A stretch of DNA of 64,000 nucleotides, taken from assembly GCA_016709965.1 (NCBI GenBank), contig JADJLT010000003.1, forward strand, positions 48,005 through 112,004, given 5' to 3'. Below, piece by piece: positions 5,604 through 53,670 of this stretch. The stretch comes from Betaproteobacteria bacterium (GTDB lineage: Bacteria > Pseudomonadota > Gammaproteobacteria > Burkholderiales > Rhodocyclaceae). The position numbers were made by a program, and so were the translations under genes. Numbering within the stretch: the first letter of the stretch is position 1; each line of letters opens with the position of its first letter. The notes under the pieces are model-generated. The model had not been told where the DNA came from and did no database searches. It was given only the letters and a program-made list of their open reading frames with translations.

Positions 5604-6962
5604 TCACAGCAGGGTGCGCTCCTGAACAATCAGCCAGCGTCCGGCTTGCTTGCGCCAGAGCAGTGCCTTGTGGACGGTTTCGGTGAAATCTCCGGCCTGG
5701 TAGTGCTGCTCGAAGGTGGTCTTAACCTCGTTGGGCGTCGGGCTCGTGGTTTGGAGTTGCTCGATGCTCAGCGTGATCGGCTCGGGCCGTGCCAGGCGCT
5801 GCTGCCGTTCTTCGGCCCATACTTCCCGGCTGGGGTGGTGCGTTGGTTGGAAGTTGCCGGCATAAAAGGCGAGATAGCGCTCGACCTGTTTACTCGCCCA
5901 GGCTTTGCGCCATTGTTCGACCAGTTCACTGACGGCTTCGCCCGGCGACTTGCTGGTGGCCTTGGCGAGAGGTTTGCTGGCTGGCGGCGCCGATTTGAGC
6001 GCCGGCTTGGGGCTTGTATCGCTGGCCTTGGGCGGTGCAACAGCCGGGACGGAAATTTCCGGTTTTGGCTCTTTTTTCGGGTTGACCGCAGCAATGGCTG
6101 GCGAGGCTGCTGTCAGTGGTGGATTCGTCGCGCTGGCACTGATTTTTGCGAAATCAGCCTTGCAGCGCAGGCCGGCGGGTAGTGTGTGCGTCGGGTTGTC
6201 GAGGCGGAGCAGGGTGCGGAAGGTGTTGCTGGCCGGATCGATGACCTTGTCGACACGGGTGACCTGGGCGCGGACAGTGCCAGCCCCCGGCAGTTCGGGC
6301 TGAATGGAGGCGCTGTCGCCGGGTGCGATCTGGCCGTAGAGGCTGATGGGAACGACCACCTGAACACGCAGCGGGTCAATTTGTGCCACGCGCAGGATTG
6401 CTTTTTCCTCGACGCGTTCGCCCGGGGCCAGGTAGCGTTCGGTGACGACGCCGTCAAAGGGGCTGATGATCGAGCGCTGACTCAGCAGAGCGCGCGAGTA
6501 GTCCACTTCATTGCTGGCGACGCGGCGGTTTTCACGCGCTTGTTCCAATTTCTGGCGAGTAACTTCGGCATCGGCGCGGCTTTGGTCCAGGGCGTTGTGC
6601 GAAATGAAGTTCCGCTTGAACAGGTCTTCGTTGCGCGCCAGTTGCTGGGCAGAAAATCGGGCGGCGGCTTCGGCGGCGTGAACCTCGCCCTCCGCTTCTT
6701 GCCGCGCCTTGGCCAGAGCGACGGCTGCGCGCTCGGATTGCGCTTTGAGGACGGCCAGAACCTGGCCTTTCTTGACCATGTCGCCACGTTCGACGGGAAT
6801 GGATTCGATAATGCCCACGACCTGACTGCCGATATCAGCCGTCCGCTCGGCCTCAATCAGGCAGCCCAGCGGCTGCGCCGCGTGGGCGCTGCCGACAACC
6901 AAGGCGACAAGACCGAAAAGCTGCAGCGCTCGGCGACGCAGGTGGTCTGGTGGCGAAATCAT
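5604..6962 (-). CDS. Periplasmic adaptor (MFP/HlyD-RND adaptor family) fused through a Pro/Lys/Ala-rich linker to a C-terminal NTF2/SnoaL-like (Cds6-type) domain
   Basis: 452-aa ORF with a signal-like N-terminus, LQLFGLVALVVGSAHA. Adaptor motifs: GQVLAVL, coiled-coil segment, IISPFDGVVTERY, RVQVVVP. The linker is aa ~270-335. The C-terminal module reads WRKAWASKQVERYLAFYAGNF...GRWLIVQE. Confidence 0.8.
   Translation of the reverse strand: MISPPDHLRRRALQLFGLVALVVGSAHAAQPLGCLIEAERTADIGSQVVGIIESIPVERGDMVKKGQVLAVLKAQSERAAVALAKARQEAEGEVHAAEAAARFSAQQLARNEDLFKRNFISHNALDQSRADAEVTRQKLEQARENRRVASNEVDYSRALLSQRSIISPFDGVVTERYLAPGERVEEKAILRVAQIDPLRVQVVVPISLYGQIAPGDSASIQPELPGAGTVRAQVTRVDKVIDPASNTFRTLLRLDNPTHTLPAGLRCKADFAKISASATNPPLTAASPAIAAVNPKKEPKPEISVPAVAPPKASDTSPKPALKSAPPASKPLAKATSKSPGEAVSELVEQWRKAWASKQVERYLAFYAGNFQPTHHPSREVWAEERQQRLARPEPITLSIEQLQTTSPTPNEVKTTFEQHYQAGDFTETVHKALLWRKQAGRWLIVQERTLL
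6055..6095 (-). repeat. Dispersed CGGTCAAC/A-tract repeat, copy c5, in-frame inside the adaptor linker
   Basis: The minus strand reads ATTGCTGCGGTCAACCCGAAAAAAGAGCCAAAACCGGAAAT, nearly identical to intergenic copy c2. It is translated as IAAVNPKKEPKPEI. Confidence 0.8.
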
Positions 6963-7153
6963 GTGGTGAGTTTCATTTTGCTTGAGGTGACAGACACAAT
7001 TTTCAACGCGCCGGGTTATGTAGGCTGTCGAATATTTCCGAATTGAGACATATTTTACATTTTAAGTACACGCAAGCTGGGCGTCGTCTTAATTACGGCA
7101 AAAACGCCGCAGTCTTGAGTTTGCATGTCCATAGCAGGGTGAATCCTTAGCGT

Positions 7154-9127
7154 TCATTCTTGAGTCGCCGAAAAAGCCAGTTGTCGATTTTGCTGTTTTA
7201 TCTGCGCTAGCAGCCGTCGGCGCAACAGGGCGTCGTGACTTTCCCGCGCTCGTTGTGGCCAGGCAAAGAGCGCGGCCAGCAGGCGCGGTGAGTTGATCGG
7301 GCAGCGTCTGGCCAGCCAACGACGCAATCCGGCGGGCAGGGTGCTGCGCAACAGGTGGCTGTCGAGTGACAGCCAGGTTTCAACGCTGCCCGGATCGCCC
7401 TGCCGGGCGCATCGCCCGATCAGTTGCCGGTCGATGCGGCGAGCATCGTTGAGCTGGCAGTTGATGATGTGCAGGCCGCCACGTTCGGCTACTTCGGGCG
7501 CTAACAGAATATCAGTGCCGCGACCGGCCATGTTGGTTGCCACCGTGACCCGTCCGGCTTGGCCAGCGTGGGCGACGATGGCGGCCTCCTCGCTGTCGTT
7601 GCGGGCATTGAGCAGCAAGTGGGCAATGCCGGCTGCCTGCAAGTGCCGGGCGAGCGCTTCGGAGTCGAGGACAGATTCCGTGCCGATCAGCACCGGGCGC
7701 CCGGCGTCGATCATTTCCCGGATGCGGACGCAAACCGCTGGCCACAGGCTGGCGTGATCGGTAAACAGGCGCGGCGGCAGGGTCACGCGGGCCGATGGTC
7801 GGCGCAGCGGAACACGGCAAACGGCCAACCCGTAGGTGGCGAACAGCTCGTCCCGTGCCTCGTGCAGGGTGCCGCTCAATCCACCGAGGCGAACGTAACG
7901 CGGGAAGAAGCGTTGAAAACTGGTGGCGGTCAGCGGTGCCGCCGGCAAAGTGGGCGTGCAGCCCTCTTTCAATTCGACCAGTTGGTGCAGGCCTTGTGAC
8001 CAGGCGCGGCCCGGCGCCGTGCGTCCGGTGTTGAGGTCGATGATGTGCACGGCATTGTCGGCGACCAGGTAGTCACGATCGCGCTGCAGGGCATGCAGCG
8101 CGACGAGGGCGATGGTGACCATCGCCTCGCGATGCGTGCGGTTGTGCCAAGGCCGGCTCAGCCAGCCGGTGCCTTTTTCAATACGCTTTTTTCCTTGCGC
8201 CGTCAGCAAGGCATGCTCTGCCCGGGCGTCCAGTATGAAGTCCTCACCGCTCTTTAGGCCGCGGGCGAGGGCCAGTGATTCTTTGAAAAAAGCGTCTTTT
8301 TCCGGGTTGACCGCAGCATCCGACAAAATCAGTGGCACGCGGGCTTCATCGATCAGGATGCTGTCGGCTTCGTCGATGATGCCCAGACAGAAGCCGCGCA
8401 GGGTAGTCGGCCGCGCTTTGCCGAGCAGGCGGTCGGTGTGCCAGCGCAGGCCCTCGGCACCCGGCACCATGCGGTCACGCAGACTGTCAAAAACCAGCTC
8501 CTTGGCCGTCGCATACACGATGTCGGCGGCGTAGGCGATGCTTCGCTCGGCGGGCGTAGCCGCCTCGGTGATGTAGGCGACTGACAGCCCGAGCATCGCG
8601 TAAAGCGGGCTGAGCGCTTCGGCATCGCGGTGGACGAGGTAATCGTTGACCGTCATGACATGGACCGGCATGCCGGCCAGCGCACCGCAGGCCGCCGCCA
8701 GCGCGACTGTCAGGGTTTTCCCTTCGCCGGTGGCCATTTCCGCCAGGCTGCCGTCGAGCACGATGCGGGCACCGATCAGTTGCACATCAAAAGGTCGTCG
8801 TCCGAGGCATCGCTGGCTGCATTCGCCGAGGATGGCGAAGGCCTCGGCAAGTAGCGTTTCCGGTAGCGCGGAGTTGCGCAAACGTTGGCGGATGCGGCGT
8901 ATGCGTTCAGTCAGCGCTGCATCGTCAAGTGACTGAAGTGGCGCTTCAAACTGTCGAACCCTGGCCACAAACTGCGGAAAGGCAGCTTCGCTCCGGCGTC
9001 GGCTCAAGGGCACGGCAAGTTGTTGCAGCCAGCGCTCAAGGCGAGGCAGCTCGGACCATGGGCGACGATTTTCCGGGTATGGCCCCCAGACCGGTCCGGG
9101 GACTGGCAAGGGGAGAGATTTCATCAT
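7154..9127 (-). CDS. SecA-like DEAD-motor ATPase (NBD1, shortened preprotein-crosslinking domain, NBD2) lacking most of the helical scaffold, the wing domain and the C-terminal tail
   Basis: 657 aa. SecA signatures present: FDVQLIG, MATGEGKTL (Walker A), VMTVNDYLVHRD, IIDEADSILIDEARVPLILS, TNMAGRGTDI, GGLHII...RRIDRQLIGRCARQGDPGS. Only about 90 aa follow the last motif. The start overlaps the upstream stop (ATGA at 9124-9127). Confidence 0.85.
   Translation of the reverse strand: MMKSLPLPVPGPVWGPYPENRRPWSELPRLERWLQQLAVPLSRRRSEAAFPQFVARVRQFEAPLQSLDDAALTERIRRIRQRLRNSALPETLLAEAFAILGECSQRCLGRRPFDVQLIGARIVLDGSLAEMATGEGKTLTVALAAACGALAGMPVHVMTVNDYLVHRDAEALSPLYAMLGLSVAYITEAATPAERSIAYAADIVYATAKELVFDSLRDRMVPGAEGLRWHTDRLLGKARPTTLRGFCLGIIDEADSILIDEARVPLILSDAAVNPEKDAFFKESLALARGLKSGEDFILDARAEHALLTAQGKKRIEKGTGWLSRPWHNRTHREAMVTIALVALHALQRDRDYLVADNAVHIIDLNTGRTAPGRAWSQGLHQLVELKEGCTPTLPAAPLTATSFQRFFPRYVRLGGLSGTLHEARDELFATYGLAVCRVPLRRPSARVTLPPRLFTDHASLWPAVCVRIREMIDAGRPVLIGTESVLDSEALARHLQAAGIAHLLLNARNDSEEAAIVAHAGQAGRVTVATNMAGRGTDILLAPEVAERGGLHIINCQLNDARRIDRQLIGRCARQGDPGSVETWLSLDSHLLRSTLPAGLRRWLARRCPINSPRLLAALFAWPQRARESHDALLRRRLLAQIKQQNRQLAFSATQE
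8295..8318 (-). repeat. Dispersed CGGTCAAC/A-tract repeat, copy c6 (5' half only), in-frame in the SecA-like gene
   Basis: The minus strand reads TGCTGCGGTCAACCCGGAAAAAGA, encoding AAVNPEKD directly after the DEAD-box segment. Confidence 0.65.
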
Positions 9128-11301: not shown

Positions 11302-11304
11302 GTC

Positions 11305-15040: not shown

Positions 15041-15081
15041 TTGGCTGCGGTCAACCGGTAAAAATGGGCAAATTTGAAAAA
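15041..15081 (+). repeat. Dispersed CGGTCAAC/A-tract repeat, copy c1 (intergenic)
   Basis: TTGGCTGCGGTCAACCGGTAAAAATGGGCAAATTTGAAAAA. Confidence 0.8.
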
Positions 15082-15161: not shown

Positions 15162-15440
15162 TCAGGTATTTCCCGCCTCGTAGGCGGACAGCGTGACCCC
15201 GGCGTGGCTGAGCATCTCGCGGATCGTCTTGATGTCGGTCTTGCTGCAGGTGCTGCTGTTGTGCGGATGGTGCAGGAATGCTTCGACCTTGTTCAAGGTG
15301 ATCTTGAAGCGGGCGCCATGTGACGGTTCGATGTCGGCGCCCAAGTGCTTGAGCAACGATTCGATTTCGCGCCAGTGGATATTGGCCGGTAGCGGGTCCT
15401 GGAAGATGCTGCGCATCAGGTGGTCATGCTTGTGACTCAT
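15162..15440 (-). CDS. Small HicA-like (YcfA/HicA fold) protein with no adjacent HicB-like partner
   Basis: 92 aa. The pattern LMRSIFQDPLPANIHWREIESLLKHLGA...HHPH...IKTIREMLSHAGV matches my memory of a HicA-family subclass. The assignment rests on motif recall only. Confidence 0.4.
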   Translation of the reverse strand: MSHKHDHLMRSIFQDPLPANIHWREIESLLKHLGADIEPSHGARFKITLNKVEAFLHHPHNSSTCSKTDIKTIREMLSHAGVTLSAYEAGNT

Positions 15441-15495: not shown

Positions 15496-15981
15496 TCAGG
15501 CGAAAACGATCTTCAGCAGGGCCAGACAGAGCAAAGTGTACCCGGCCGCAACAAGGTCGTCGGCCATGACACCGAAGCCGTTCTTGACGTGCTGGTCAAA
15601 GTAGCGGGCCGGTTGCGGCTTGGTGATGTCGAAATAGCGGAACAGCGCGAAGGCAGCCAGTTGCCACAAGAAGGTATCGGGCGTCATCAGCAGGATGAGC
15701 CAGAAGGGAACGATTTCGTCCCAGACAATGCTGCCGTGGTCGGGGTCGCCGATCGCCTTGCCGGTAACGTCAATAAACCAGATGCCGCCGAGGTAGGCTG
15801 CGGTCAACAGGAATAAAAGGCCAAAATCGGAAAAATATTGATGGAAGAGGGCATAGGTCAGCCACGCGAACAGCGTGCCGAAAGTCCCTGGCGCCTTCGG
15901 CGCCAGGCCGCTGCCACAACCCAGCGCGAAAAAGTGCGCCGGATGGGCGAGCAGGAAGCGGACGCTAGGCGGTTTGGCCAA
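15496..15981 (-). CDS. pgpA: Phosphatidylglycerophosphatase A
   Basis: FLLAHPAHFFALGCGSGLAPKAPGTFGTL...WDEIVPFW...FRYFDITKP. The tracked 224-aa ORF extends into thiL. An in-frame TTG at 15981 gives about 161 aa and overlaps the thiL stop. Confidence 0.8.
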   Translation of the reverse strand: MAKPPSVRFLLAHPAHFFALGCGSGLAPKAPGTFGTLFAWLTYALFHQYFSDFGLLFLLTAAYLGGIWFIDVTGKAIGDPDHGSIVWDEIVPFWLILLMTPDTFLWQLAAFALFRYFDITKPQPARYFDQHVKNGFGVMADDLVAAGYTLLCLALLKIVFA

Positions 15982-19118: not shown

Positions 19119-19706
19119 TCAGGGCAGATAGGCTTCGACCTGAATGCGCAGACGGACTTCATCGCCGATGAAGGGCAGGCCGTTGTCGAGGCCGAATTCG
19201 GAGCGACGCAGTACGCCGACTGCATCAGCGCCACAGCCTTGCTTGCGTTTGGCGAGATTAAAGCCGCATTTGAAGCGGCTGATGTCGAGTCGCATCGGGC
19301 GGACTTCACCGAGCATGGTCAGCGTGCCGTCAACGGCGCTTAACTTGTCGTCGGTGAACACGAGTTTCTGGCTGCGAAAGAGGATGTTCGGGAAATCCTT
19401 GACCTTGAACCAGGTGTCGCCGCGCAAGACGTCGTCGCGCAAGGCGAAGCCGGTATCCAGAGAGGCGGCGTCGATGGTGATGTCGATGCGGCCGGTTTTG
19501 CCTTCCGGGTCAAATTCCACAATGCCGCTGCTGCGGTTGAACTGGCCTCGCTGTGTCGAAAAGCCGAGGTGGTCGATTTCGAAACTGGCATAGGTGTGCG
19601 AGGCATCAATGTTGTATTCGGTTGCCAAGCTTGGCTGGGCAAAAGACATTGCGGCGGCAAAAAGTATGGCGGAGAGGCGTGCGGCGATGGGTTCTGCGGT
19701 CAACAC
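19119..19706 (-). CDS. yceI: YceI-family periplasmic polyisoprenoid-binding protein
   Basis: YNIDASHTYASFEIDHLGFSTQRGQF...GTLTMLG. The signal peptide LSAILFAAAMSFAQPSLA requires a start at GTG 19706 or TTG 19703, which lies inside repeat copy c8. The start is uncertain. Confidence 0.8.
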   Translation of the reverse strand: MLTAEPIAARLSAILFAAAMSFAQPSLATEYNIDASHTYASFEIDHLGFSTQRGQFNRSSGIVEFDPEGKTGRIDITIDAASLDTGFALRDDVLRGDTWFKVKDFPNILFRSQKLVFTDDKLSAVDGTLTMLGEVRPMRLDISRFKCGFNLAKRKQGCGADAVGVLRRSEFGLDNGLPFIGDEVRLRIQVEAYLP

Positions 19707-19730
19707 GAAATTTTGCCCAAAAATGAAATG
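19692..19730 (+). repeat. Dispersed CGGTCAAC/A-tract repeat, copy c8 (divergent promoter region, overlapping the probable yceI start)
   Basis: TTCTGCGGTCAACACGAAATTTTGCCCAAAAATGAAATG; closest to copy c4. Confidence 0.8.
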
Positions 19731-19795: not shown

Positions 19796-21295
19796 ATGCG
19801 GCACGCCCTCCTTTTTTCCGTCTTTGTCATCGCCTCCTGCGGGCTGGCCTATGAGCTGATCGCTGGCGCGCTGTCGTCCTATCTGCTGGGCGATTCGGTG
19901 ACGCAGTTTTCGACGGTGATCGGCACCTATCTGTTTGCCATGGGCGCCGGCTCGTGGCTGTCGAAGTACATCACGCGTGACCTGATCGGGCGCTTCATCC
20001 AGATCGAGTTGATGGTCGGGCTGTTGGGTGGATTTTCGGCCATTGGCCTGTTTCTCGTTTTTGCCTGGCTGTCGGGGCCATTCAAGCTGGTCCTTTATCT
20101 GGCCGTGTTCGGGGTCGGCGTGCTGGTCGGGCTGGAAATTCCGCTGGTCATGCGTATTCTGAAGCGCGAATTGGCCTTCAAGGATCTGGTGTCGCAGGTG
20201 CTCACTTTTGATTATCTCGGTGCGCTGGTGGTCTCCATCCTCTTCCCGCTGGTGCTGGCGCCGCAGATCGGCATGGTGCGCACCGGCTTGCTGTTTGGGA
20301 TGCTCAATGTTGCCGTCGCGCTCTGGGCATTGCATCTGTTTCGCGATCAATTGCCGTCGCGGCGCTGGCTGGCGGTGCAAAGCTGGACGATATTCGGTCT
20401 TCTCGCAGCCGGCTTTGCCGGGGCCGGGCAACTGACCGGGATTGCCGAAGCGCATCTCTATGCAGATGAAATCATCTACGCCGAAACGACGCCTTATCAG
20501 CGTCTGGTCGTCACCCGTTGGCGCGATGATCTGCGCCTGTTCATCAACAACAATTTGCAGTTTTCATCGCATGACGAATACCGCTACCACGAGGCGCTGG
20601 TCCATCCCGGTCTGGCCAGCCTGCCCGGCGCCAAACGCGTGCTGGTGCTTGGTGGCGGTGACGGTCTGGCGGTGCGTGAAATTCTCAAGTACCCGAATGT
20701 CGAGTCGGTGACGCTGGTCGATCTTGATCCGGCGATGAATTCGCTATTTTCTACAGCGCCGGCATTGGTGGCGTTAAATCAGGGATCGCTGAACTCGCCC
20801 AGGGTCAAGGTGATCAACGCCGATGCGCTGCAATGGCTGGAAGAAAACCGCGATTTCTACGATTTCATCGTCATCGATTTTCCCGATCCGACCAATTTTG
20901 CGCTCGGCAAGCTCTACACCTCGGCCTTTTATCGCCTGCTGGAAAAGCGCCTGTCGGCGCGTGGCCTGCTGGTTGTGCAATCTACTTCGCCGCTCTATGC
21001 CCGGCAATCCTTCTGGTGCGTGGTGACGACGCTGGAAAGCGTCGGCTTCAAGACGGCACCGTACCACGCGCTGGTGCCGTCGTTTGGCGAATGGGGCTAC
21101 ATCATCGCGGGCCGCCAGGATTTCTCGATTCCCGCGGTCAACCCGGAAAATACCCGATTTTTGACATCCGAAATCCTGCCCGGCCTGTTCCAGTTCCCCG
21201 CTGACATGGCGCGCGTACCGGCCGAGGTCAATCAATTGAACAATCAGGTGCTGGTGCGCTACTTCGAAGCCGAGTGGCGCAAGGTCATTCGCTAG
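19796..21295 (+). CDS. speE: Membrane-anchored polyamine aminopropyltransferase (spermidine synthase-like)
   Basis: N-terminal multi-TM region, then YQRLVV...EYRYHEALVHP...VLVLGGGDGLAVRE...VDLDP. The ATG at 19796 (MRHALLF) is preferred over the GTG at 19730. Confidence 0.85.
   Translation: MRHALLFSVFVIASCGLAYELIAGALSSYLLGDSVTQFSTVIGTYLFAMGAGSWLSKYITRDLIGRFIQIELMVGLLGGFSAIGLFLVFAWLSGPFKLVLYLAVFGVGVLVGLEIPLVMRILKRELAFKDLVSQVLTFDYLGALVVSILFPLVLAPQIGMVRTGLLFGMLNVAVALWALHLFRDQLPSRRWLAVQSWTIFGLLAAGFAGAGQLTGIAEAHLYADEIIYAETTPYQRLVVTRWRDDLRLFINNNLQFSSHDEYRYHEALVHPGLASLPGAKRVLVLGGGDGLAVREILKYPNVESVTLVDLDPAMNSLFSTAPALVALNQGSLNSPRVKVINADALQWLEENRDFYDFIVIDFPDPTNFALGKLYTSAFYRLLEKRLSARGLLVVQSTSPLYARQSFWCVVTTLESVGFKTAPYHALVPSFGEWGYIIAGRQDFSIPAVNPENTRFLTSEILPGLFQFPADMARVPAEVNQLNNQVLVRYFEAEWRKVIR
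21133..21164 (+). repeat. Dispersed CGGTCAAC/A-tract repeat, copy c7, in-frame in the speE-like gene
   Basis: CGCGGTCAACCCGGAAAATACCCGATTTTTGA, encoding AVNPENTRFL. Confidence 0.6.
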
Positions 21296-30109: not shown

Positions 30110-30943
30110 ATGCCGGAATTGCCAGAGGTGGAAGTTTGTCGTCGTGGCTTGGCGCCGGAGTTGGTTGGCGCCCGCATTGAGGGGGTGAAAATCCGCGCGC
30201 CAAAGTTGCGCCAGGATATTCCGCGCGAGTTGCTTGAGGTGCTGCCGGGGTGTCAAATCGTTGCCGTTCGGCGGCGTGCCAAGTATCTGCTGATCGATTG
30301 TCAGCGTGAGGGCGTGCAGGGTTCTCTGATCATTCATCTGGGGATGTCGGGCAATTTGCGCTTCGTGCCACATGACCAGCCGGTCGAGAAGCATGACCAT
30401 TTTGAACTGGTGCTGGCTAAATATATATTGCGCTTTGCCGACCCGCGTCGCTTTGGGGTTGTGCTTTGGCAACCGGGGCCACCGGCGCTTGCTGAACTGC
30501 ATCCTTTGCTCGCATCGCAGGGGGTTGAGCCGCTATCAGAGACTTTCACGGTCGACTGGATTTTTAAGGCTATTTCGAAAAGAAGTGGGCCAATCAAGCC
30601 GACCTTGATGGACAGCCATCTGGTTGTTGGCATCGGTAATATTTATGCGTCGGAGAGCCTTTTTCGGGCCGGCATCTCGCCGCTGCGGGCGGCCAACCGG
30701 ATCAGTCGGGCGCGTTACGAAATTCTTGTGCCGGCGATTCGTGAAACCCTGTCGGATGCCATTGCCGCCGGTGGCAGCAGCATTCGTGATTATGTGCATA
30801 GCGATGGTGGTGCCGGATGCTTTCAAATTCAGGCCGGTGTTTATGATCGTGCCGGCAAACCCTGTCTGCGCTGCGGTGGTGTCGTTCGGCAAATTCGGCA
30901 GGCCGGACGCAGCACCTATTACTGCACGGGTTGCCAGCATTAA
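30110..30943 (+). CDS. mutM: Formamidopyrimidine-DNA glycosylase
   Basis: MPELPEVE N-terminus and C-terminal zinc finger CLRCGG...YYCTGCQ. Confidence 0.95.
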   Translation: MPELPEVEVCRRGLAPELVGARIEGVKIRAPKLRQDIPRELLEVLPGCQIVAVRRRAKYLLIDCQREGVQGSLIIHLGMSGNLRFVPHDQPVEKHDHFELVLAKYILRFADPRRFGVVLWQPGPPALAELHPLLASQGVEPLSETFTVDWIFKAISKRSGPIKPTLMDSHLVVGIGNIYASESLFRAGISPLRAANRISRARYEILVPAIRETLSDAIAAGGSSIRDYVHSDGGAGCFQIQAGVYDRAGKPCLRCGGVVRQIRQAGRSTYYCTGCQH

Positions 30944-32978: not shown

Positions 32979-33020
32979 ATTGCTGCGGTCAACCGGAAAA
33001 AACAGCCAAAACTGAAAAAT
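32979..33020 (+). repeat. Dispersed CGGTCAAC/A-tract repeat, copy c2 (intergenic)
   Basis: ATTGCTGCGGTCAACCGGAAAAAACAGCCAAAACTGAAAAAT, immediately 5' of the bidirectional terminator. Confidence 0.8.
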
Positions 33021-34391: not shown

Positions 34392-35677
34392 TCGGCGGCT
34401 ACCGTCACCGTGATCAGGTTTTCCGGACGAACGTGGCGTGCAAATGCCTGCTTGATCTGCTCGGCCGTTACTGCTTGAACCCTGGCCTGGTAGTGGTCGA
34501 GATAATCGAGTGGAAGGCCATAGAAGCCGATCACCGCTACGTTCTCGAGCAGCTTCTTGTTGCTGTCGAGGCGTAGTGGGAAGCTGCCGGTCAGGTTGGC
34601 CTGGGCGGCGGTCAGTTCTTCTTCTGTCGGCCCGTCCTTCAGAAAGCCATTCAGGACGTCCTGGGCAACCTTGACGGCGTCCCCGGCTTGCGAACGCTTG
34701 GTTTGCAGTCCGATCTGGAACGGGCCAGTCTGCTTCATGGGGGAGAAATAGCTGTAAACACTGTAGGCGTAGCCGCGTTTGTCGCGGACTTCCTTCATCA
34801 GCCTCGAGACGAAGCCGCCGCCACCGAGGGAATAGTTGCCGACGAGCAACGGAAAGTAGTCAGGATTGCCTCGCTCTATCGCCGGCAGGCCGATAAAAAC
34901 ATGGGCCTGGCTAGCCGGGTGGGCAAGCTGGATCAGACGTTTTTGTGGCTTTTCCGGTATGGCTGGGAGCGCGGCCGGTTCGCCCTTGGGCAGGCCGGCG
35001 GCGATGGACTCGGCGATTTTCTCGGCGTCATTGCGGGAGATGTCGCCCACCAGCGTGATGCTGGCGTTGGCCGCGTTGTAATAGCGGGCGTAGAAGGCGG
35101 TAAGGTCATCGCGAGTCAGTGATGCAATGCTTTCTGGCGTGGCTTGGCGACCGTAGGGGTGATTCGGGTACATCGCCGCCCAGAACGCCTTTCCGGCAAT
35201 GCTGTCGGGGCGGGTCATGGCCTCCTTGAGGCCGGCAATGGTGCGCGCCTTTTCGCGTTCGAAGATGGCGCCATCGAAACGTGGGGCGTGCAGTACGCTT
35301 CTCAGGATGTCGAGTGCCGGGTCACGCTTGTCCCTGGCCGACAGGGTGCGCAAGGCGACGCTGGCACGGTCGGTGTCGGCGCCGCCGGCAAGATTGGCGC
35401 CGATGTCGGCCATCTGCTCGGCGATGGCGGTTTCATCCAGCTTGCCGGCCCCGAGGTCCAGGGTGCCGCGGGTCAGGGCTGCAGTACCTGATTTGCCCGC
35501 GGGATCGAACATCGAGCCAGCGGCAAAGTCGACCTGAACGTCTAGCATTGGCAAGACGCGACTTTCGATAAAATAAACGCGGGCGCCCGAGGGTGAAACC
35601 CAGTGCTCGATCTTGACGCCAGCCAATGCGACTTGCGAGATCATCAGGACGATTACTGCGGTCAACAGTCTTTTCAT
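34388..35677 (-). CDS. M16-family peptidase, second subunit-like paralogue (no HxxEH seen)
   Basis: Signal peptide MKRLLTAVIVLMISQVALAG. Pitrilysin-family length and motifs (NASITLVGD, GGGFVSRLMKEVRDKRGYAYSV). The ATG at 35677 abuts the stop of the preceding small ORF. Confidence 0.85.
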
Positions 35678-35686
35678 GCGAAAAAC
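35654..35686 (+). repeat. Variant or partial copy (c13) of the CGGTCAAC repeat at the small-ORF/M16 junction
   Basis: TACTGCGGTCAACAGTCTTTTCATGCGAAAAAC. The 11-nt core CTGCGGTCAAC and the 3' GAAAAAC are shared with c1, but the internal tract differs. Confidence 0.45.
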
Positions 35687-36084
35687 TCCGTTAAGCGGGG
35701 TTGCCATGCAAAAAGCAGGGCAAGGCAAGCGACGACTGCCGTCAAGGCAAGGCCCCAGGCCAGGCGCCGGGCGAGCCGACGGAAATTATCAACTTGCGCC
35801 ACAAGCAGTGCATTTTGTTCGCTCAGCGCCTGGATGAGTTCACCGGAAGCGAGCATTTGCGTACGCAATTTCCGTTGGACGGCTTCCAGCGCTGCCAGCC
35901 TTGTTGCGAGATCGGCATCGGGCGAAAGATTGGGTTCTGCCATCAAATCTGATCCTGAGCCGTCGCCATTCTTGCGGCTCATGCCCTTCCACAGCTTCTT
36001 GGCGCCATCGGCGATGATCGGCGCCTTGCCGAGTACGTCGCTCCACGGCACGCTGGTGAGGATTATTTTCCACGGCAAGGGCAT
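35674..36084 (-). CDS. Hypothetical coiled-coil protein with a C-terminal TM anchor, wedged between the two M16 peptidase genes
   Basis: 136-aa ORF that fills the whole 418-bp gap. AGGA lies 5 nt before the ATG. Central heptad-like region ATRLAALEAVQRKLRTQMLASGELIQALSEQNALLVAQVDNF. C-terminal LAWGLALTAVVACLALLFAW. Confidence 0.5.
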   Translation of the reverse strand: MPLPWKIILTSVPWSDVLGKAPIIADGAKKLWKGMSRKNGDGSGSDLMAEPNLSPDADLATRLAALEAVQRKLRTQMLASGELIQALSEQNALLVAQVDNFRRLARRLAWGLALTAVVACLALLFAWQPRLTEFFA

Positions 36085-40104: not shown

Positions 40105-41701
40105 TCGGCGGGAATTTTTGCGCATCGTCGGGGCCGCGGCCCTGACCGGATGCTCACCCGCTGCCAAACATCCCTTGCCGCCTGGCGACTTGCTGGGCAT
40201 GAATCACGCGCTTGGCCATCGCCTGCGCGATGGCGGTTTTCCGCCGCCTTCCGAAACGAGAAAGACCGGCGTGCTGATCGTTGGTGGCGGCATCTCCGGG
40301 CTATCGGCAGCCTGGAAACTGGCCAATGCTGCGGTCGACGACTTTTTGTTGCTGGAAATGGAAAGTGAAGTCGGTGGCAATTCGCGTGCCGGACAATCAC
40401 AGCTTGTCGCCTATCCGTGGGGCGCGCATTACCTGCCGCTACCGACGCGTGAGGCCGTACATGTCCGCGACTTGCTGGCTGAACTGGGTGTTTTGCAGGG
40501 TGATCCGGCGGCGCTCAGGCCAATTTACGACGAACGTTATCTGTGCGCGACGCCGCAGGAGCGGGTGTACCGCAATGGCTTCTGGGAAGAGGGTTTGCTG
40601 CCCCATCGCGGCCTGGATACAGCCGAGCGTGCGCAGCAGAAGCGCTTTCAGCAGCAGATGGAAGTGTTCAAGCGGGCGATTGGTCGGGATGGTCGGCGTG
40701 CCTTTGCCATTCCCATGGCCTTATCCAGCAGTGACCCGGCGTGGCGCGAGCTCGACAGGATTTCCTTTGCGCAATGGCTGAACGAAAACGGTTTCACGGC
40801 GAAGACTGTGCACTGGCTTGCCAACTATGCTTGCCGCGACGACTTCGGTATGGCGCATGATCAGGTATCGGCCTGGGCCGGCTTGCACTATTTTGCCTGT
40901 CGTAACGGAGAGGCTGGCAACGCGGCGAACGATGCGGTGCTGACGGCGCCGGAGGGCAATGCCTGGCTGGCACGTGGTTTGGCCCGCAAGGCTGGCGCAC
41001 GCGTGCTTACCGGGGCTATGGTCTGGCATATTGAAGAAGGAAAGTCGGGTGTTTCGGTCGATGCCTTGGTCGGTGAAAAATCCATCCGCTTCGAGGCGCA
41101 GCAATTGATTTGGGCGGCGCCCGCTTTTGTCTTGCCGCGCGTCTGGCCGGGCATTCCAGAGGCATTGAAATTGGCGGCGCTGGCAGGTGATTACGCGCCG
41201 TGGCTGGTCGCCAACCTGCATCTTTCGGATTTGCCGGAGGAGCGCTTGGGTGCGCCGGCCGCATGGGATAACGTTTTCTACGACAGCCCCGGTCTTGGTT
41301 ACGTGAGCGCCACGCATCAACTGATTCGCCGCCGGCTGACCGGTACGGTTTTGACCTACTACCGGGCGCTTCACGATGTGGCGCCAGCCGAGGGGCGACG
41401 CCTGCTGCTAGATACCCCGCGCGAAGCGTGGGCGGAAGGTATTCTTTCCGAGTTGGAGCGGGTGCATCCGGATATCCGCAAGCTGACGACCCGCCTCGAT
41501 GTCTTCCGGCATGGCCATGCCATGCGTCGTCCGGTGCCGGGCAGCCTGTTCCACGGTCAACGGGAAAAAATGGCCAATTTTGAAAACCTGCACATCAGCC
41601 TGGCCCATGCCGATTTGTCGGGATTCTCTTTGTTTGAAGAGGCGCAGTATCGTGGTGTCCTGGCGGCCGAGCGGGTAATGCGGCGCTACGACGCCAGATA
41701 G
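40097..41701 (+). CDS. Tat-exported, probably lipidated FAD/NAD(P)-binding oxidoreductase (amine-oxidase-like)
   Basis: The N-terminus MTDRREFLRIVGAAALTGC combines a twin-arginine motif and a lipobox-like Cys. Dinucleotide fold VLIVGGGISGLSAA. The TTG start overlaps the ftsX stop by 8 nt. Confidence 0.7.
   Translation: MTDRREFLRIVGAAALTGCSPAAKHPLPPGDLLGMNHALGHRLRDGGFPPPSETRKTGVLIVGGGISGLSAAWKLANAAVDDFLLLEMESEVGGNSRAGQSQLVAYPWGAHYLPLPTREAVHVRDLLAELGVLQGDPAALRPIYDERYLCATPQERVYRNGFWEEGLLPHRGLDTAERAQQKRFQQQMEVFKRAIGRDGRRAFAIPMALSSSDPAWRELDRISFAQWLNENGFTAKTVHWLANYACRDDFGMAHDQVSAWAGLHYFACRNGEAGNAANDAVLTAPEGNAWLARGLARKAGARVLTGAMVWHIEEGKSGVSVDALVGEKSIRFEAQQLIWAAPAFVLPRVWPGIPEALKLAALAGDYAPWLVANLHLSDLPEERLGAPAAWDNVFYDSPGLGYVSATHQLIRRRLTGTVLTYYRALHDVAPAEGRRLLLDTPREAWAEGILSELERVHPDIRKLTTRLDVFRHGHAMRRPVPGSLFHGQREKMANFENLHISLAHADLSGFSLFEEAQYRGVLAAERVMRRYDAR
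41551..41587 (+). repeat. Dispersed CGGTCAAC/A-tract repeat, copy c12, in-frame near the 3' end of the oxidoreductase gene
   Basis: CCACGGTCAACGGGAAAAAATGGCCAATTTTGAAAAC, encoding HGQREKMANFEN. Confidence 0.75.
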
Positions 41702-44700
41702 TGCAGCAGCAACATCTTGAGGTCTTGCGGGTCAACCGGCTTGACGATGAAGTCATTCATGCCTGCATCGAGGCAACGCTCGCGATCCTCGGCGAAGGCG
41801 TTGGCTGTCATGGCAATGATGGGCAGCAGCGTGTACTGCGACTGGGCCCGGATATGACGAGTTGCCTCCAGCCCATCCATTTCAGGCATCTGCATGTCCA
41901 TCAGAATAAGGTCGAAGGTCTTCGTTTTGAGGATGTCGAGGGCTTGGCGGCCGTTTTCGGCCGTGTCGGCGGTGATGTCGTATTCGCGGAGCAGTTCCAA
42001 GGCAATTTCGCGGTTGATCGGTTCGTCTTCAACGACCAGCAGATGGCGTCCGGCCAGACTGTCGTGTACCGCTTGCATTGAAAGGCCGGCAAAGGTTGAG
42101 GTCAGCGCATCCATGGCTTCATCACCGGGTTTGAGTCGGGCGCTGAACCAGAAGCGGCTGCCCGCGCCAAGGCGACTGGTTACGCCAACGCGGCCCCCCA
42201 TCAGTTCGGCGAGGCGGCGAGTAATGGCCAGGCCCAAACCGGTGCCACCGAATTTACGGCTGGTTGAGCTGTCGGCCTGTTCAAAAATACCGAACAGGCG
42301 AGGGATGGACTCTTCGGCAATGCCGATGCCGGTATCTTCGACTTCAAAGCGGAGTTGAACGCCGTCGGCGTTTTCAGAGAGGCGACGGGCTCTGATCGTG
42401 ACGCTGCCCCGTTCCGTGAACTTGATGGCGTTGGCGGTGTAATTGATCAGGCATTGGATGATGCGCGTCGGGTCACCGATCAGCGTGTGTTCAAAGGGGT
42501 CGGATTCGGTCAAAAGCTCCAGCCCTTTTTCGTGGGCGCGTTCGCCGAGGACAGAGGTGACGCGTTTGAGAATGCTGTTGATATCGACCTTGGTCTCGTC
42601 AAGCTGCAGCTTGCCGGCTTCGATCTTTGAAATATCGAGGATATCGTTGATGACGGCGAGCAGATGCTGCGAAGCATTGTCGATCTTGTCGAGGCGATCG
42701 ATTTGCACTGGGGTCGGGTTGTCGCGACGCAACAGGTAAACCATGCCGAGAACCGCATTGAGCGGCGTGCGGATTTCGTGGCTCATGTTGGCGAGGAAGG
42801 CACTCTTCGAACGACTCGATGCCTCCGCTGCCTGACGGGCAATTTCGAGCTGTGCGGTGCGTTGTTCGACCTGTTTTTCCAGGTTTTGTCGGTGCTCTTC
42901 AAGCGCCTTGGCATGGCGCAAGGTCTCGCTGATGTCCGAAAAGGCAACAACGACGCCAGTAACGACGCCATCGTGCCGTTTGGGGGTTATCGTCAGGCGC
43001 ACCGGAAAGGCTGTCCCGTCCTTGCGCCAGAATACATCTTCCGTCCGGCGCAGTTTGCCATCCTGGGCGGTAAGCCGGATTGGGCATTCAGATTCCGGAT
43101 ACGTGCTTCCATCAGATCGATGGCGATGGAACAAGGTGTGGGAATTTCGGCCCAGCACCTCTTTTTCCTCGAACCCCAGTTGTGCCAGACCGGCTGGATT
43201 CATGAAGGAACAGACGCCGTAGAGGTCGGTCCCGAAAATGCCTTCCCCCAGTGTTTCAAATATCATGCGCTGGCGCGCTTCGCTCTCGATCAGCGCACGT
43301 TCGGCGCTGGCCAGATCGGCCAGGTCAATATCCAGGCAGAACATCATGGGGCCGCGATCGGCCGTATCCAGAATGGTGTGACTGGAATACACCTCGACAG
43401 GTTGTCCATTTTTGTGGCGCAGCGTCATTCGACCCGCCGGAATGCCGGTCTTGTGCTCGAACATCCATTGCACCGCATTGTGCACGCCTTCATGCATCGC
43501 CGGCGGGATGATCAGTTCCAGCAATGATTTTCCCAGCGCCTCTTCCTGTGTATAGCCGTAAAGCGTTTGCGAGGCGTGGTTCCAGTAAGCAACGGTGCCA
43601 TCTACCAGATAGCCCTGAATGGACAGGGCATCGACATTTTCGAAAATGGCACGAAAGCGGGCTTCGGTCGAGGTCAGCTCCGCCATGGTCTGCTTGTTGC
43701 GCGCGCGCTCGGCCTTGAGGCGCCGATTGTTCCTGAACAGTATGAAAACGGCGAGCAGGACAGCGCCCAGAATCAGCAGGGTGACGATCGCAACCACCCA
43801 AGCATATTGTGCAATGACCTCGGCCAAGCTGACATTGGGGGCAGTGTCGAAAGGCGGGAAGCGCATTTTGCGCAACAAATCCTCGACCGGGCGGTAGTCG
43901 GCGGGAATGCTGAAGCCGTAAATGTTGGCGGCCATGGCGACATCACCGTTGTGGGGCAAGGTCAGAATGGCAGCAGCGAGTTGCCGGGCAAAGCGTTCAT
44001 CCGCCCAGGGCATGGCCGCCAGCGGCCATTCCGGATACAGGCGGGTCGAGTGGATCAGGGGATAGTCGTCTTCCTTGGCGTTGATGATGCGCAGGCGTCG
44101 GGCGTCCAGCTTCTTGTCTTTTTCCATCGCTTCGATCAGGCCGGTGCGCACAAAGGCAGCGTCGGCATGGCCGGCCAGCAATTCGACGATTGCCTGATCC
44201 TGGGATGGCCCTGTTTCGAGAATCCTGGCATCGTCCGGGAGTTGGATTCCCCGCTGCATCATTTCATAGGCTTGCGCCATGTAGCCACCCAGCTCGGCCT
44301 TGCTGCTGACAGCAATGCGCTTGCCGGCGAGGTCGGCAAGGCTCTGAATGTCCTTCTGGTCTGAACGGGCGGCAATGACGCCGCTAATACTGGGCAAGGG
44401 TTTGTCTCCCAGTTTTTCGATCAGAGTGGCGAGTGGTGACAGCAAGCCCTCGCGTTGGGCGAGCAAAATGTAGTGAGCGGGTTGGGTCAGGACGAAGTCG
44501 ACCTGCTTTTCGCGGATGGCGGCTTCCAGGTCCTTCTGGCCAAGAGCGACCAGCTCAAGGCGTCGGCCGAGATTGGCGTTGTTGAGGTAGTCGATCAGCG
44601 GTTGCCAGCGTGCGATGGTTTCGGGCTGGGGGCGAAAGGCCAGAATTGCGAATTTGGCTGGTTTTTTACCGTTGACCGCGGGAGTCGCCGCGGGGATGGT

Positions 44701-46156: not shown

Positions 46157-46707
46157 GGCATGTTTCGGTGGAAGGTCAGCGCGAAGCTCTGACGGAGATG
46201 AAAATCGGGTTGCGGCGCACCGTGTTCAAGTGCCCAGTAGCTTTTGCTGCTGTCGGCAGTTTCGATCACCAAGCTGATGCCTAGTAACAGCGTCTGCTCG
46301 TCAGGCAGCAATTCGCGGGCGATGGATGCATCAAGCTGGAAGCCATCGGGTCGTGATTGAAGGGAGATCAGCGGTGCTGCGGCAGGGACAAAGTCGGCAT
46401 CACGTTCCCGGTAATCGTTGAAACGATAGGCTGCCCACTGGCCCGAGGGGGAAAAATTGAATTCCTGGTATTTTTTCCGGTTGACCGTGGCAATGAAGGC
46501 TTCGCAGCAGGTGTGCTGCCAAAGATTGTCAGCGGGGCCGGAAGGCTGCGCGAGGGGAAGTTGGATGTCTTCAGTCCTTCCGCTCACGCGAAATGACAGA
46601 TCAAGGCCGCCGGCAGCGTTGCCGTGCACCACGATTTCGATGCAGTCGATGGCGCTACAAGGGCTGGCTTGATGACAACTCAGGGTGGCGTGGTGCGCTG
46701 GGTTCAA
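46153..46707 (-). CDS. DOMON/CBM9-like domain protein, co-transcribed with the DUF1343 gene
   Basis: 184 aa with a 4-nt overlap with the downstream gene. The beta-rich pattern NLWQHTCCEAF...EFNFSPSGQWAAYRF is consistent with DOMON-like proteins. Motif recall only. Confidence 0.5.
   Translation of the reverse strand: MNPAHHATLSCHQASPCSAIDCIEIVVHGNAAGGLDLSFRVSGRTEDIQLPLAQPSGPADNLWQHTCCEAFIATVNRKKYQEFNFSPSGQWAAYRFNDYRERDADFVPAAAPLISLQSRPDGFQLDASIARELLPDEQTLLLGISLVIETADSSKSYWALEHGAPQPDFHLRQSFALTFHRNMP
46452..46494 (-). repeat. Dispersed CGGTCAAC/A-tract repeat, copy c9, in-frame in the DOMON-like gene
   Basis: The minus strand reads ATTGCCACGGTCAACCGGAAAAAATACCAGGAATTCAATTTTT, encoding IATVNRKKYQEFNF. 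Confidence 0.7.
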
Positions 46708-46766: not shown

Positions 46767-46800
46767 TTGCTGCGGTCAACACCGAAAAATGGCCAAAATC
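46767..46800 (+). repeat. Dispersed CGGTCAAC/A-tract repeat, copy c3 (divergent intergenic region)
   Basis: TTGCTGCGGTCAACACCGAAAAATGGCCAAAATC. It forms an inverted pair with c9 about 270 bp away. Confidence 0.8.
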
Positions 46801-46875
46801 CGCATACGCCCTTGGTCGGACAGGGCATTTGGAGTAACTTACCGCCTTTCAACAAATGCTTTCCGGGAGAGAAAA

Positions 46876-48240: not shown

Positions 48241-48244
48241 GCCT

Positions 48245-49575: not shown

Positions 49576-49635
49576 GATTTGCCTGCAAATAGCTCAGAAT
49601 AAACATAATTTTCCGTTTCTTCGGACCCTCGCCGC

Positions 49636-50394
49636 GTGATTACTTACGAATACCCGTTCAATGAGCGCATCCGCACACTGCTGCGTCTCGAGGACCTGTT
49701 CGAAAAATCCGCCTACTTTGCGCAGGATGACGGTGCGCTTGAGCACCATACGGCACTCGTTTCCCTGTTTGAAATTCTTGAAGTGGCCGGTCGCGCCGAC
49801 CTCAAGATGGATCTGATTCAGGAACTGGAAAGACAGCGTCAAACCCTGCTGGCCTTTCGCAATAATCCCGAAATTTCCGAAGAAGCGCTTTCTGGTGCGC
49901 TTTATGAAATCGAGCAGTCATCTGCCGCATTGCTTGGCATGACCGGCAAGATTGGCCAGTACCTGCGCGAAAACGACTGGTTGATGGGTATCAAGAGCCG
50001 GGCGGCAATTCCAGGTGGCGTCTGCGAATTTGATCTGCCGTCCTACCACTGGTGGTTGCATCGCCCGAGTGAAGTTCGGCGCAGCGCGCTGGAGGGGTGG
50101 ACCAAGCCGATGTTGCCCTTGCGTGATGCGGCAACGATTGTCCTGCGCCTGCTGCGATCCAGTGGTCGCCCCAAAAACTACGCTGCTACCAACGGACAGT
50201 TTCAGCTCAATCTGAGTGGTTCGGCGGCGCAAATGGTTCGTGTCACCTTGAGTGCCGAGGAACAGGCCATCCCCGAAGTCAGCGCCAACAAGTATTTCCT
50301 GAATATTCGTTTCACCAAGCCGCCGGCCGGTGAAATCAAGGCGCGTAGCTGCGAGCGCGACGTCGCGTTCGATCTGACCTTCTGTAATCTTTAG
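49636..50394 (+). CDS. zapD: Cell-division protein ZapD
   Basis: ITYEYPFNERIRTLLRLE...; 252 aa; conserved position after coaE. Confidence 0.9.
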   Translation: MITYEYPFNERIRTLLRLEDLFEKSAYFAQDDGALEHHTALVSLFEILEVAGRADLKMDLIQELERQRQTLLAFRNNPEISEEALSGALYEIEQSSAALLGMTGKIGQYLRENDWLMGIKSRAAIPGGVCEFDLPSYHWWLHRPSEVRRSALEGWTKPMLPLRDAATIVLRLLRSSGRPKNYAATNGQFQLNLSGSAAQMVRVTLSAEEQAIPEVSANKYFLNIRFTKPPAGEIKARSCERDVAFDLTFCNL

Positions 50395-53274: not shown

Positions 53275-53400
53275 TTTTCGCTAGCAGCATGCTTGGAGAC
53301 TGCGGCGTCCGCATTTCAGGGCGTCGCAGTCTTCAGCCCGTCTGAGTTATCGGGGATAATTCCATTTTTAGCCTGATTGTCTTTTCGGTAACGGTACACC

Positions 53401-53610
53401 ATGACTTCTCAACGCAAAGTTCGTTGCCCACAATGTGGTAAGGATGCCCTTTGGGCGCCCGAAAATCCGTATCGCCCATTTTGTTCCGAGCGCTGCAAGC
53501 AGATTGATCTGGGGTGCTGGGCTAGCGATTCTTATCGCATCGGTGGCGCAGTGAGCGACGAAGAGGCCGGTATGCCGGGTATCGATTTTCCGGATCAGCC
53601 CGAACGTTGA
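53401..53610 (+). CDS. yacG: DNA gyrase inhibitor YacG (zinc finger)
   Basis: VRCPQCGK...[16 protein letters not shown]. Confidence 0.9.
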
Positions 53611-53630
53611 AGTTGGCCGTCCGGTGATCT

Positions 53631-53670
53631 TCTACGGTCAACCGGAAATTTTGCCCAAAATCGAAATATT
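53631..53670 (+). repeat. Dispersed CGGTCAAC/A-tract repeat, copy c4 (between convergent genes)
   Basis: TCTACGGTCAACCGGAAATTTTGCCCAAAATCGAAATATT. Confidence 0.8.

Follow-up and report, generated by a model that had tools for sequence, protein, structure and literature searches.

In a 64,000-nucleotide stretch of a betaproteobacterial genome of the family Rhodocyclaceae (GenBank assembly GCA_016709965.1, contig JADJLT010000003.1, positions 48,005 to 112,004; hereafter the window), we found a dispersed DNA motif of about 40 bp that consists of a fixed 8-bp core, CGGTCAAC, and two A/T-rich tracts one helical turn apart. The motif is strongly over-represented, uses both strands evenly, lies within genes as well as in the spacers between them, is conserved at orthologous positions, has arisen in coding DNA by substitution, and is limited to one lineage. 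We put the chances at about even that it may serve as a DNA uptake sequence, of the same kind as the uptake signal sequences (USS) of Pasteurellaceae and the DNA uptake sequences (DUS) of Neisseriaceae, in one Dechloromonas/Azonexus clade (Azonexaceae, Betaproteobacteria).

Counting both strands, the core occurs 18 times in the window, as compared to 2.59 +/- 1.52 times in 100 dinucleotide-preserving shuffles, none of which reached 18. Thirteen of the 18 cores stand in register with a common longer motif, T-GCTG-CGGTCAAC-SSG-A5-6-N5-AAAAT (consensus of the window copies TTGCTG-CGGTCAAC-CGG-AAAAAA-TGGCC-AAAAT-YG-AAAAA), while the other 5 are bare. With the A-tract joined to the core, CGGTCAACNNNNAAAA was counted 9 times where 0.02 were expected, and GCTGCGGTCAAC, with up to one mismatch, 11 times where 0.45 were expected. 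An unbiased k-mer count made without any prior led to the same element: the top 12-mer of the window was GCTGCGGTCAAC itself (6 copies, 186 times the order-3 Markov expectation), and the leading 12-mers were this word and three overlapping it, at 133-213 times expectation. When an nhmmer profile made from the 13 copies was run on the window, it returned 13 matches with E-values from 2e-11 to 8e-6, the next best hit having an E-value of 0.35. All 12 copies listed in a preliminary description of the window are present where it placed them; a thirteenth full copy at 15801 (+) had been overlooked, and the strand split is therefore 9 plus and 4 minus instead of 8 and 4. The four bare cores of that description were also recovered, together with a fifth at 52041 (-) that it had missed. 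The copies and their surroundings are as follows.

6055..6094, minus strand: full copy, core 6081-6088 (nhmmer E 1.8e-11), in the linker of the HlyD/Cds6_C protein gene (5604-6962), frame xCG GTC AAC
8280..8319, minus strand: full copy, core 8306-8313, sense within the SecA-like ATPase gene (7154-9127)
15042..15081, plus strand: full copy, core 15048-15055, in the tandem spacer between a GGDEF-EAL regulator gene and hicA
15795..15834, plus strand: full copy, core 15801-15808, antisense within pgpA
19691..19730, plus strand: full copy, core 19697-19704, in the spacer of the divergent pair yceI and spermidine-synthase-like gene
21129..21168, plus strand: full copy, core 21135-21142, sense, within the part of the spermidine-synthase-like (speE-like) gene that encodes the C-terminal tail
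30543..30582, plus strand: candidate copy with core CGGTCGAC at 30549-30556 and T-rich flanks, within fpg/mutM (nhmmer E 0.35, flank score 19)
32980..33019, plus strand: full copy, core 32986-32993, in a convergent spacer directly upstream of a separate terminator-like hairpin
35653..35692, plus strand: variant copy with weak A/T tracts, core 35659-35666, over the 5' end of an M16 peptidase gene in antisense orientation (E 8e-6)
41548..41587, plus strand: full copy, core 41554-41561, sense in another frame (H-G-Q-R-E-K), close to the 3' end of an FAD oxidoreductase gene
44645..44684, minus strand: full copy, core 44671-44678, sense, where a hybrid histidine kinase gene encodes its periplasmic domain
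46454..46493, minus strand: full copy, core 46480-46487, sense in a small gene without an assigned function
46767..46806, plus strand: full copy, core 46773-46780, in a divergent spacer
53629..53668, plus strand: full copy, core 53635-53642, in a convergent spacer
54286..54315, minus strand: decayed or proto copy, CAGCGGTTGACTGGCAAATAACGGGCAAGG, within the NUDIX-ThiE gene
8645 (-), 11541 (+), 13610 (-), 18823 (+) and 52041 (-): bare cores with the A-tract part missing

The limits of the motif are evident from the mean pairwise identity among the 13 window copies, which is 1.00 in the core, 0.52 at positions -8..-1, 0.43-0.57 at +8..+33, and 0.26-0.28 beyond. A/T tracts 1 and 2 start at +11 and +22, about one helical turn from each other. 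Helical phasing of the A-tracts, as originally proposed, thus holds for these two but not for the third run (~+29), which lies just 7 bp past the second and is weak in the larger sample described below. The conserved upstream positions T-5, C-3, Y-2 and R-1 (usual forms GCTG or CCA) were absent from the earlier account, and the 8-mer that it called invariant is nearly so, with CGGTCGAC tolerated as a variant through one transition (A-to-G at core position 6). No duplicated flanks were found around the window copies. The reported lack of internal dyad symmetry was upheld: 12 copies folded as single strands gave z-scores of -1.4 to +1.9 and no common structure.

Beyond the window, one genome per species, for 185,579 species, was scanned for TGCTGCGGTCAACNNNNAAAAA, which yielded at least 120 blocks of at most 8 kb each. 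Among the matches listed, 112 blocks belong to Dechloromonas, Azonexus, Azonexaceae, Rhodocyclaceae or unnamed betaproteobacterial genome bins, and one of the species in this set is Candidatus Dechloromonas phosphorivorans, a candidate phosphate-accumulating organism of wastewater plants; the group as a whole includes perchlorate reducers and candidate phosphate accumulators. Eight of the blocks listed are from a single complete chromosome, OU015322 (3.46 Mb), where they are spread from 0.12 to 3.14 Mb, and the culturable strains D. hortensis MA-1 and Dechloromonas sp. Dech2017 are represented by one listed match apiece. Another 8 listed blocks were single matches in unrelated phyla and served as chance controls. 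Because the blocks are fixed partitions of contigs, the density of cores other than the one that selected each block is unbiased. These unselected cores numbered 173 in 843 kb of related DNA (0.205/kb), as compared to 0.07/kb in the controls (59 kb of unrelated blocks) and about 0.04/kb implied by the window shuffles, so that the over-representation first noted in the window extends to more than 30 related genomes. The density of the motif is about 0.12-0.24/kb, or about one copy per 4-8 kb, and extrapolates to some 400-1000 copies per genome.

The unselected cores independently rebuild the full motif, with T-5, C-3, Y-2 and R-1 ahead of the core, an S-rich stretch at +8..+10, and then the A/T tracts. 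In their logo, the tracts occupy +11..+15 and +23..+27 with a G/C spacer between them and peaks 10-11 bp apart, and there is no information outside -8 or +32. Base -1 is G in 45% and A in 35% of these cores, within an upstream consensus of T-G-C-T/C-G/A. The core, tract 1 and tract 2 follow each other at about 10-11 bp and therefore lie on one face of the helix. As a complementary approach, a weight matrix that scores only the flanks (-6..-1 and +8..+32) was run on the window and the related blocks, where it found 284 sites, versus 7 in shuffled sequence and 0 in the control blocks. The 8 unscored bases at these sites read CGGTCAAC in 184 cases and CGGTCGAC in 31, with any other single mismatch seen just 3 times; the core is near-invariant with one tolerated transition, because sites chosen by their flanks carry almost solely these two words. 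The CGGTCGAC form is spread over many genomes and is not one genome's private variant. Viral contigs of IMG/VR, scanned with the motif, gave 12 single matches, which is about chance level. Full copies were seen on four of the viral contigs (L004 at 2873-2911 and 3549-3588, L006 at ~10331-10365, L009 at ~8886-8922 and L015 at ~5900-5943), which could represent prophages, or pieces of host DNA, from within the clade; the remaining viral matches look like chance.

For the relationship of the motif to genes, we used a simple home-made gene caller, trained on the window, on the related loci, and defined a full site as a perfect core with a flank score of at least 8, which gave 219 sites in 907 kb. 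Of these, 145 (66%) are in genes and 74 (34%) are intergenic, in DNA that is about 89% coding and 11% intergenic. Genic sites are sense in 87 cases and antisense in 58 (35 and 36 among those not used for selection), with one frame dominant in each sense; xCG GTC AAC is the reading at 70 of the 87 sense sites. Nevertheless, at least four frames are used, encoding unrelated peptides (AAVN.EK, HGQPEK, LTAA, VDRS), so the tolerance of copies inside coding sequences that had been proposed from the window is real, and the conserved entity is the DNA, not a peptide. A repeated peptide had been considered as a candidate and was rejected on the same grounds, with copies that are intergenic, antisense and in four frames. 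Of the 66 spacer copies that could be classed, convergent spacers account for 31 while making up 13% of the spacer DNA, tandem spacers for 24, and divergent ones for 11 while making up 37%; spacer type was not assignable for the other 8, which lie at block edges. Convergent spacers are thus about 5-8 times denser in the motif than tandem or divergent spacers, and given this excess and the deficit in divergent spacers, the motif avoids promoter regions and favors the least constrained DNA.

As the idea of an uptake sequence predicts, no bias by strand or replichore was observed. Full sites are split 110 plus and 109 minus, and their orientation does not follow the sign of local GC skew, a rough proxy for the leading strand (83/78, p = 0.75). 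A check by chromosome position was added in OU015322, in which GC skew flips as expected for two replichores and the motif orientations are mixed on both, at 6/7 and 3/5 in this small sample. Some copies stand as close inverted pairs that form long imperfect palindromes (L021 at 4690-4750, L060 at ~1737-1748, L016 at 7074-7086 and L041 at 5972-6036), recalling the terminator pairs of USS and DUS.

Comparison of orthologous sites, another step suggested at the outset, showed that copies are conserved and that those at three coding sites were gained by substitution. Two of the scan blocks are orthologous to part of the window: L039, from OU015322, and L069, from Ca. D. phosphorivorans. At 79% nucleotide identity, L039 keeps copies at the sites of window 46480 (-), 46773 (+) and 53635 (+); the spacer around the last of these has diverged, with indels, and L069 has no copy there. 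In the NUDIX-ThiE gene, the same codons hold, without a gap, a full copy in L069 (TGCTGCGGTCAACTGGGAAAAATGCGGAAAATCGG), the CGGTCGAC form in L039, and the degenerate CAGCGGTTGACTGGCAAATAACGGGCAAGG in the window. Further loci, L136-L143, were picked through PgpA and hence independently of the motif. The window from 15.2 to 21.5 kb is colinear with six other genomes at 80-85% identity. L140-L142 have copies at all three window sites in this region (15801, 19697 and 21135), with the CGGTCGAC core at the 21135 site, and the pgpA copy is also present in L143, which overlaps the region in part. By comparison, not one full copy was present in 20 kb each of L136 and L137 (both D. denitrificans-like), L138 or L139. 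At the pgpA site (15801), L136, L138 and L139 have colinear coding sequence of equal length without the motif, and at the 21135 site the alignment of L138 and L139 is likewise colinear with the motif absent; an example of a coding site reads GGCTGCGGTCAACAGGAATAAAAGGCCAAAATCGG in the window and GGCCGCGGCGAGCAGGAAAAGCAGCTGGAAATCAC in L138. The absence of gaps as a test for origin by point mutation is the gap test of Redfield et al. 2006. Since the three coding copies (pgpA, speE-like and NUDIX-ThiE) align without gaps to motif-free orthologues, they originated by substitution and not by insertion.

Orthologous copies therefore persist over 15-25% nucleotide divergence, and their presence is restricted by clade: at the pgpA region, the window and L140-L143 bear the motif, while L136/L137, L138 and L139 are without it. 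In a neighbor-joining tree from 6,130 gap-free columns, the motif bearers are grouped with a bootstrap of 141/200. The motif consequently belongs to one subclade and not to the whole genus, with the D. denitrificans-like genomes and two other relatives lacking it.

Among known systems, the closest in architecture is the USS, which occurs as a Hin-type (AAGTGCGGT) and an Apl-type (ACAAGCGGT(C), 10-mer ACAAGCGGTC), each followed by two AT-rich segments (PMC1626085). The new motif likewise has a core and then two AT-rich segments at a spacing of about one turn, and this part of the USS-like architecture proposed earlier stands, whereas the USS core consensus, ANNNGCGGT, is not found in it: CGGTCAAC has an obligatory CAAC and either G or A before CGG. 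Both cores share (G)CGGT(C), as (G/A)CGGTC in the new motif, and GCGG comprises the bases critical for uptake in Haemophilus influenzae (PMC3458573); we would regard this resemblance as analogy, not homology. Further similarities are the lack of orientation bias, about two thirds of copies in genes, origin by point mutation, clade-specific consensus types, and perfect cores that outnumber singly mismatched ones, as in H. influenzae (PMC1626085). The differences are equally specific. Upstream of the core, USS have A-A/C-R-T/A where the new motif has T-GCTG or CCA; tract 1 begins about 2 bp past GGT in USS and 7 bp past it here; and the tracts are T-rich in H. influenzae but A-rich on the core strand of the new motif. 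USS reach about 0.4-0.8/kb, as compared to about 0.12-0.24/kb, and their hosts are host-associated Gammaproteobacteria, unlike the free-living Betaproteobacteria of the order Rhodocyclales that carry the new motif. Uptake preference has been demonstrated for USS; for the new motif it is a proposal.

The DUS of Neisseriaceae, of which AT-GCCGTCTGAA is one form and whose receptor is the minor pilin ComP, have in common with the motif a betaproteobacterial host and a 10-12-bp word over-represented on both strands, in genes and preferentially in 3' intergenic regions. DUS dialects are also limited by clade, with copies common at orthologous sites (PMC3630211; bioRxiv 10.1101/2025.10.24.684340). 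In contrast, no DUS dialect resembles the consensus TTGCTGCGGTCAACCGGAAAAAATGGCCAAAAT, which lacks the conserved CTG core context; DUS are without the flanking AT tracts (PMC1626085) that the motif has, and they are about 4-8 times denser and often form inverted pairs acting as terminators, which are rare here. Lying outside the sequence definitions of both USS and DUS, the motif is therefore a member of neither family; it behaves like both and is built like USS, and a corresponding function may be proposed. Other short repeats compare less well. Repetitive extragenic palindromic sequences (REP) and the interspersed mosaic elements built from them (BIME), enterobacterial repetitive intergenic consensus (ERIC) sequences and Correia-type repeats are also short and dispersed in hundreds of copies, some between convergent genes, but those elements show palindromy or terminal inverted repeats, occupy intergenic DNA and arise by insertion, whereas the motif has no dyad, no fold and no duplicated flanks, lies mostly in genes, and originated by substitution in its coding copies. 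Chi and the FtsK-orienting polar sequences (KOPS) are similarly invariant 8-bp words over-represented chromosome-wide, genes included; they differ in having a strong replication-strand skew and no need of a flank, where the motif is unskewed in a modest sample and has about 25 bp of co-occurring flank.

We favor an uptake-type sequence because the invariant core, the phased AT tracts, the hundreds of copies per genome that are extrapolated, strand symmetry, tolerance in genes, 3' excess, origin by substitution and clade limits are features of USS and, flanks aside, of DUS. Motifs of this kind are generally put down to a transmission bias, in which the uptake machinery favors the word and recombination spreads the better-matching alleles. 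Under such a model, a surface-exposed DNA receptor of the type IV pilus or competence machinery would bind double-stranded DNA at (T)GCTG-CGGTCAAC. The two A/T tracts, which follow downstream at one and two turns and share a face of the helix, would make the DNA bent or easily kinked, and such a stretch could aid the passage of a DNA loop through the outer-membrane secretin. Fragments bearing the word would then be favored in uptake and recombine with the resident allele, in which case substitutions that improve the match would be over-transmitted; this would account for the observed outcome, copies built up in place wherever they are tolerated. If this is correct, the sequence would constitute a third family of uptake sequences, of independent origin and without precedent in free-living environmental bacteria, a proposition that in our view is as open to being wrong as right. 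The genome paper of D. aromatica does describe pilus-like gene clusters and mentions type IV pili systems (PMC2907700).

A number of observations count against this interpretation. That same genome paper makes no mention of competence (PMC2907700), and a search for pilin signatures in about 1.1 Mb of sampled loci found none. Our literature search found no paper tying Dechloromonas to an uptake sequence and no uptake or transformation data for the group, and the core word appears in none of the top-ranked papers for CGGTCAAC or 'uptake sequence'. The density is about 4-8 times below the roughly 1/kb of classical USS and DUS, the bare 8-mer is enriched just ~5-7 times, and close inverted pairs are rare (4 among 219 sites, three head-to-head and one tail-to-tail). 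The intergenic copy at 19697 stands opposite a 29-nt gap in two motif-free relatives, making insertion or deletion possible for non-coding copies. Finally, all of the evidence from sequence fits selection for a chromosomal protein-binding site equally well.

It is accordingly possible, though on the whole we think it unlikely, that the copies form an array bound by a chromosomal protein specific to this lineage, for instance a nucleoid-associated, chromosome-organizing or segregation factor, which would read CGGTCAAC, prefer an adjacent bent A-tract, and maintain its sites by weak selection on each of them with no uptake bias. An invariant core with degenerate yet phased flanks, dispersal on both strands round a chromosome, origin in place with conservation at orthologous positions, and a motif that comes and goes between sister lineages, as might follow the gain or loss of one protein, would all be expected of such a system, and the lack of competence data for the group in the literature is in its favor. 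However, no known nucleoid protein has hundreds of asymmetric 30-40-bp sites, two thirds of them genic, in four frames and at a cost in amino acids; divergent spacers, which contain promoters, are avoided; and selection would be very weak for each of some 400-1000 sites, where transmission bias explains the build-up directly. Uptake sequences are the only precedents for this exact signature (PMC1626085). A transmission bias that does not involve uptake, arising from sequence-biased repair, gene conversion, a recombination site, or a Chi-like or nuclease/defense self-marking signal, appears to us quite improbable. It could explain a lineage-specific motif originating by substitution in place, and the invariant core has the size of a Chi site, but Chi and KOPS-type signals are strongly polar, unlike the 83/78 split against GC skew and the 6/7 and 3/5 on the replichores of OU015322; they do not need A/T tracts one and two turns away, and known repair biases work on words of 4-5 bp rather than ~35 bp.

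The reverse complement of the motif, TTTTT-N-ATTTTGGCCATTTTTTCCGG-TTGACC-GCAGCA, resembles a T-rich UP-like element followed by a -35-like TTGACC, and the window copies at 19697 and 46773 are in divergent spacers, as a promoter or the operator of a global regulator might be. We consider this reading highly improbable: there is no conserved -10 element at the right distance, information ends 8 bp past the core, genic copies read in both directions (87 sense, 58 antisense), and 11 of the 219 sites are in divergent spacers, which hold 37% of intergenic DNA, with convergent spacers and gene interiors dominating instead. Remnants or ends of a miniature mobile element (inverted-repeat transposable or REP-like) spread by insertion, an alternative raised in the preliminary description, were discarded and are barely credible, given that similarity ends outside ~40 bp and the flanks are not duplicated. 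Repeats that are dispersed and about 40 bp long, the 29-nt gap in two relatives opposite the 19697 copy, and a few head-to-head pairs in the form of long palindromes are what might be cited for it. Against it, identity drops to 0.26-0.28 beyond -8 and +33; terminal inverted repeats, target-site duplications and a fold were all not found; two thirds of the copies are genic, in frame and non-disruptive; the three coding copies are colinear with motif-free orthologues; and a perfect core with degenerate flanks is the opposite of uniform decay.

Several other candidates were tried and rejected. An RNA element, terminator or REP hairpin does not fit, as an Rfam scan of the window gave the tRNA-Gln only and the 12 folded copies were structureless. 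For integration host factor (IHF), only TCAA fits the consensus WATCAANNNNTTR, with the A-tract on the wrong side. A palindromic operator was considered on account of CGGTCGACCG, the variant core within a perfect 10-bp palindrome with a SalI-type GTCGAC, which occurs in L141 (4865-4874 and 13572-13581), L142 (4856-4865), L140 (6269-6278) and L064 (3634-3643); but the AAC form, which is not palindromic, outnumbers it 6-fold, contrary to what recognition by a symmetric dimer would predict, and +8..+10 are only weakly conserved.

The window itself is ordinary chromosomal DNA of about 59% G+C, with prs, rplY, pth, ychF, ribBA, ribH, nusB, thiL, pgpA, fpg, ftsYEX, coaE, zapD and one tRNA-Gln among its genes. 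Homologues of its PgpA at 75-97% identity are found under Dechloromonas names, and L001, a contig from a metagenome, matches 22.6 kb of it at 99.85% identity. The host is accordingly an uncultured Azonexaceae member of Dechloromonas/Azonexus type (order Rhodocyclales, class Betaproteobacteria). On the left, a minus-strand cluster at 2-13074 begins with a giant protein (DUF4347/cadherin/LamG, over 1,839 amino acids) that extends past the window edge and continues with an HlyD+Cds6_C protein, a 657-aa SecA-like ATPase, an M50-like/HlyD protein and a GAF-HlyD protein; its make-up suggests a specialized export system that includes a paralogue of SecA, and we found no synteny for it in the relatives examined. 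A HicA-toxin-like gene (15162-15440) adjoins pgpA and keeps this position in all fetched loci L136-L143, with no obvious hicB beside it in the gene tables. In motif-free L136, the spacer between the spermidine-synthase-like gene (4602-6101) and yceI (6283-6846), opposite window 19697, has a palindromic REP-like element (..CGCTCGCAATGACCGGCGCCGGTCATTGCGAGCG..) whose 12-mers occur 3 times in 20 kb, a different and classical kind of repeat in a sister lineage. A Kelch-repeat protein gene (868 aa, 50668-53274) is absent from the otherwise colinear L039, whose alignment with the window is interrupted at 50390 and 53413; the difference is an indel between relatives, and the segment has the bare core at 52041 only and no full motif. 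Near the right end, which has low G+C (0.52-0.56), is an IS21-family element (59965-62209) with no motif copy. Its IstA-like transposase is in two overlapping open reading frames, with the helix-turn-helix/rve part at 59965-60963 and the Mu-transposase C-terminal domain at 60902-61396, followed by IstB at 61463-62209, and the IstA-like gene may be frameshifted. The 10 kb past 53.7 kb that include this element have no copy, which is not significant as a sign of motif depletion in foreign DNA (P ~0.12).

Sequence-specific DNA uptake is documented in two host-associated families only, Pasteurellaceae and Neisseriaceae (PMC1626085; bioRxiv 10.1101/2025.10.24.684340): uptake sequences outside them were unknown to the 2006 study (PMC1626085), and the 2025 survey of uptake sequences covers these two families only (bioRxiv 10.1101/2025.10.24.684340). 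If the uptake reading is correct, a third case in free-living Rhodocyclales would mean that preference for self-DNA is not peculiar to mucosal commensals, and a betaproteobacterial host would be combined with the design of a core plus phased AT tracts that has so far been unique to Pasteurellaceae. It would imply sequence-selective natural transformation, and a cognate receptor, in organisms never reported as competent, and an independently evolved core with phased AT tracts would offer a comparative test of the idea that DNA is kinked through the secretin. The motif would bear on two questions, the receptor for USS and the working of USS-type flanks. Since motif-bearing and motif-free sister lineages are only about 15% diverged, comparing the genes that each has offers a direct way to find the putative receptor of the motif. 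In practical terms, including the ~40-bp word in constructs could make these bacteria transformable, and the word could likewise mark the lineage when contigs are binned or when foreign DNA is sought in these genomes. Should the motif not be an uptake signal, a 35-bp asymmetric site substituted into hundreds of genes would itself represent an unusual protein-DNA system.

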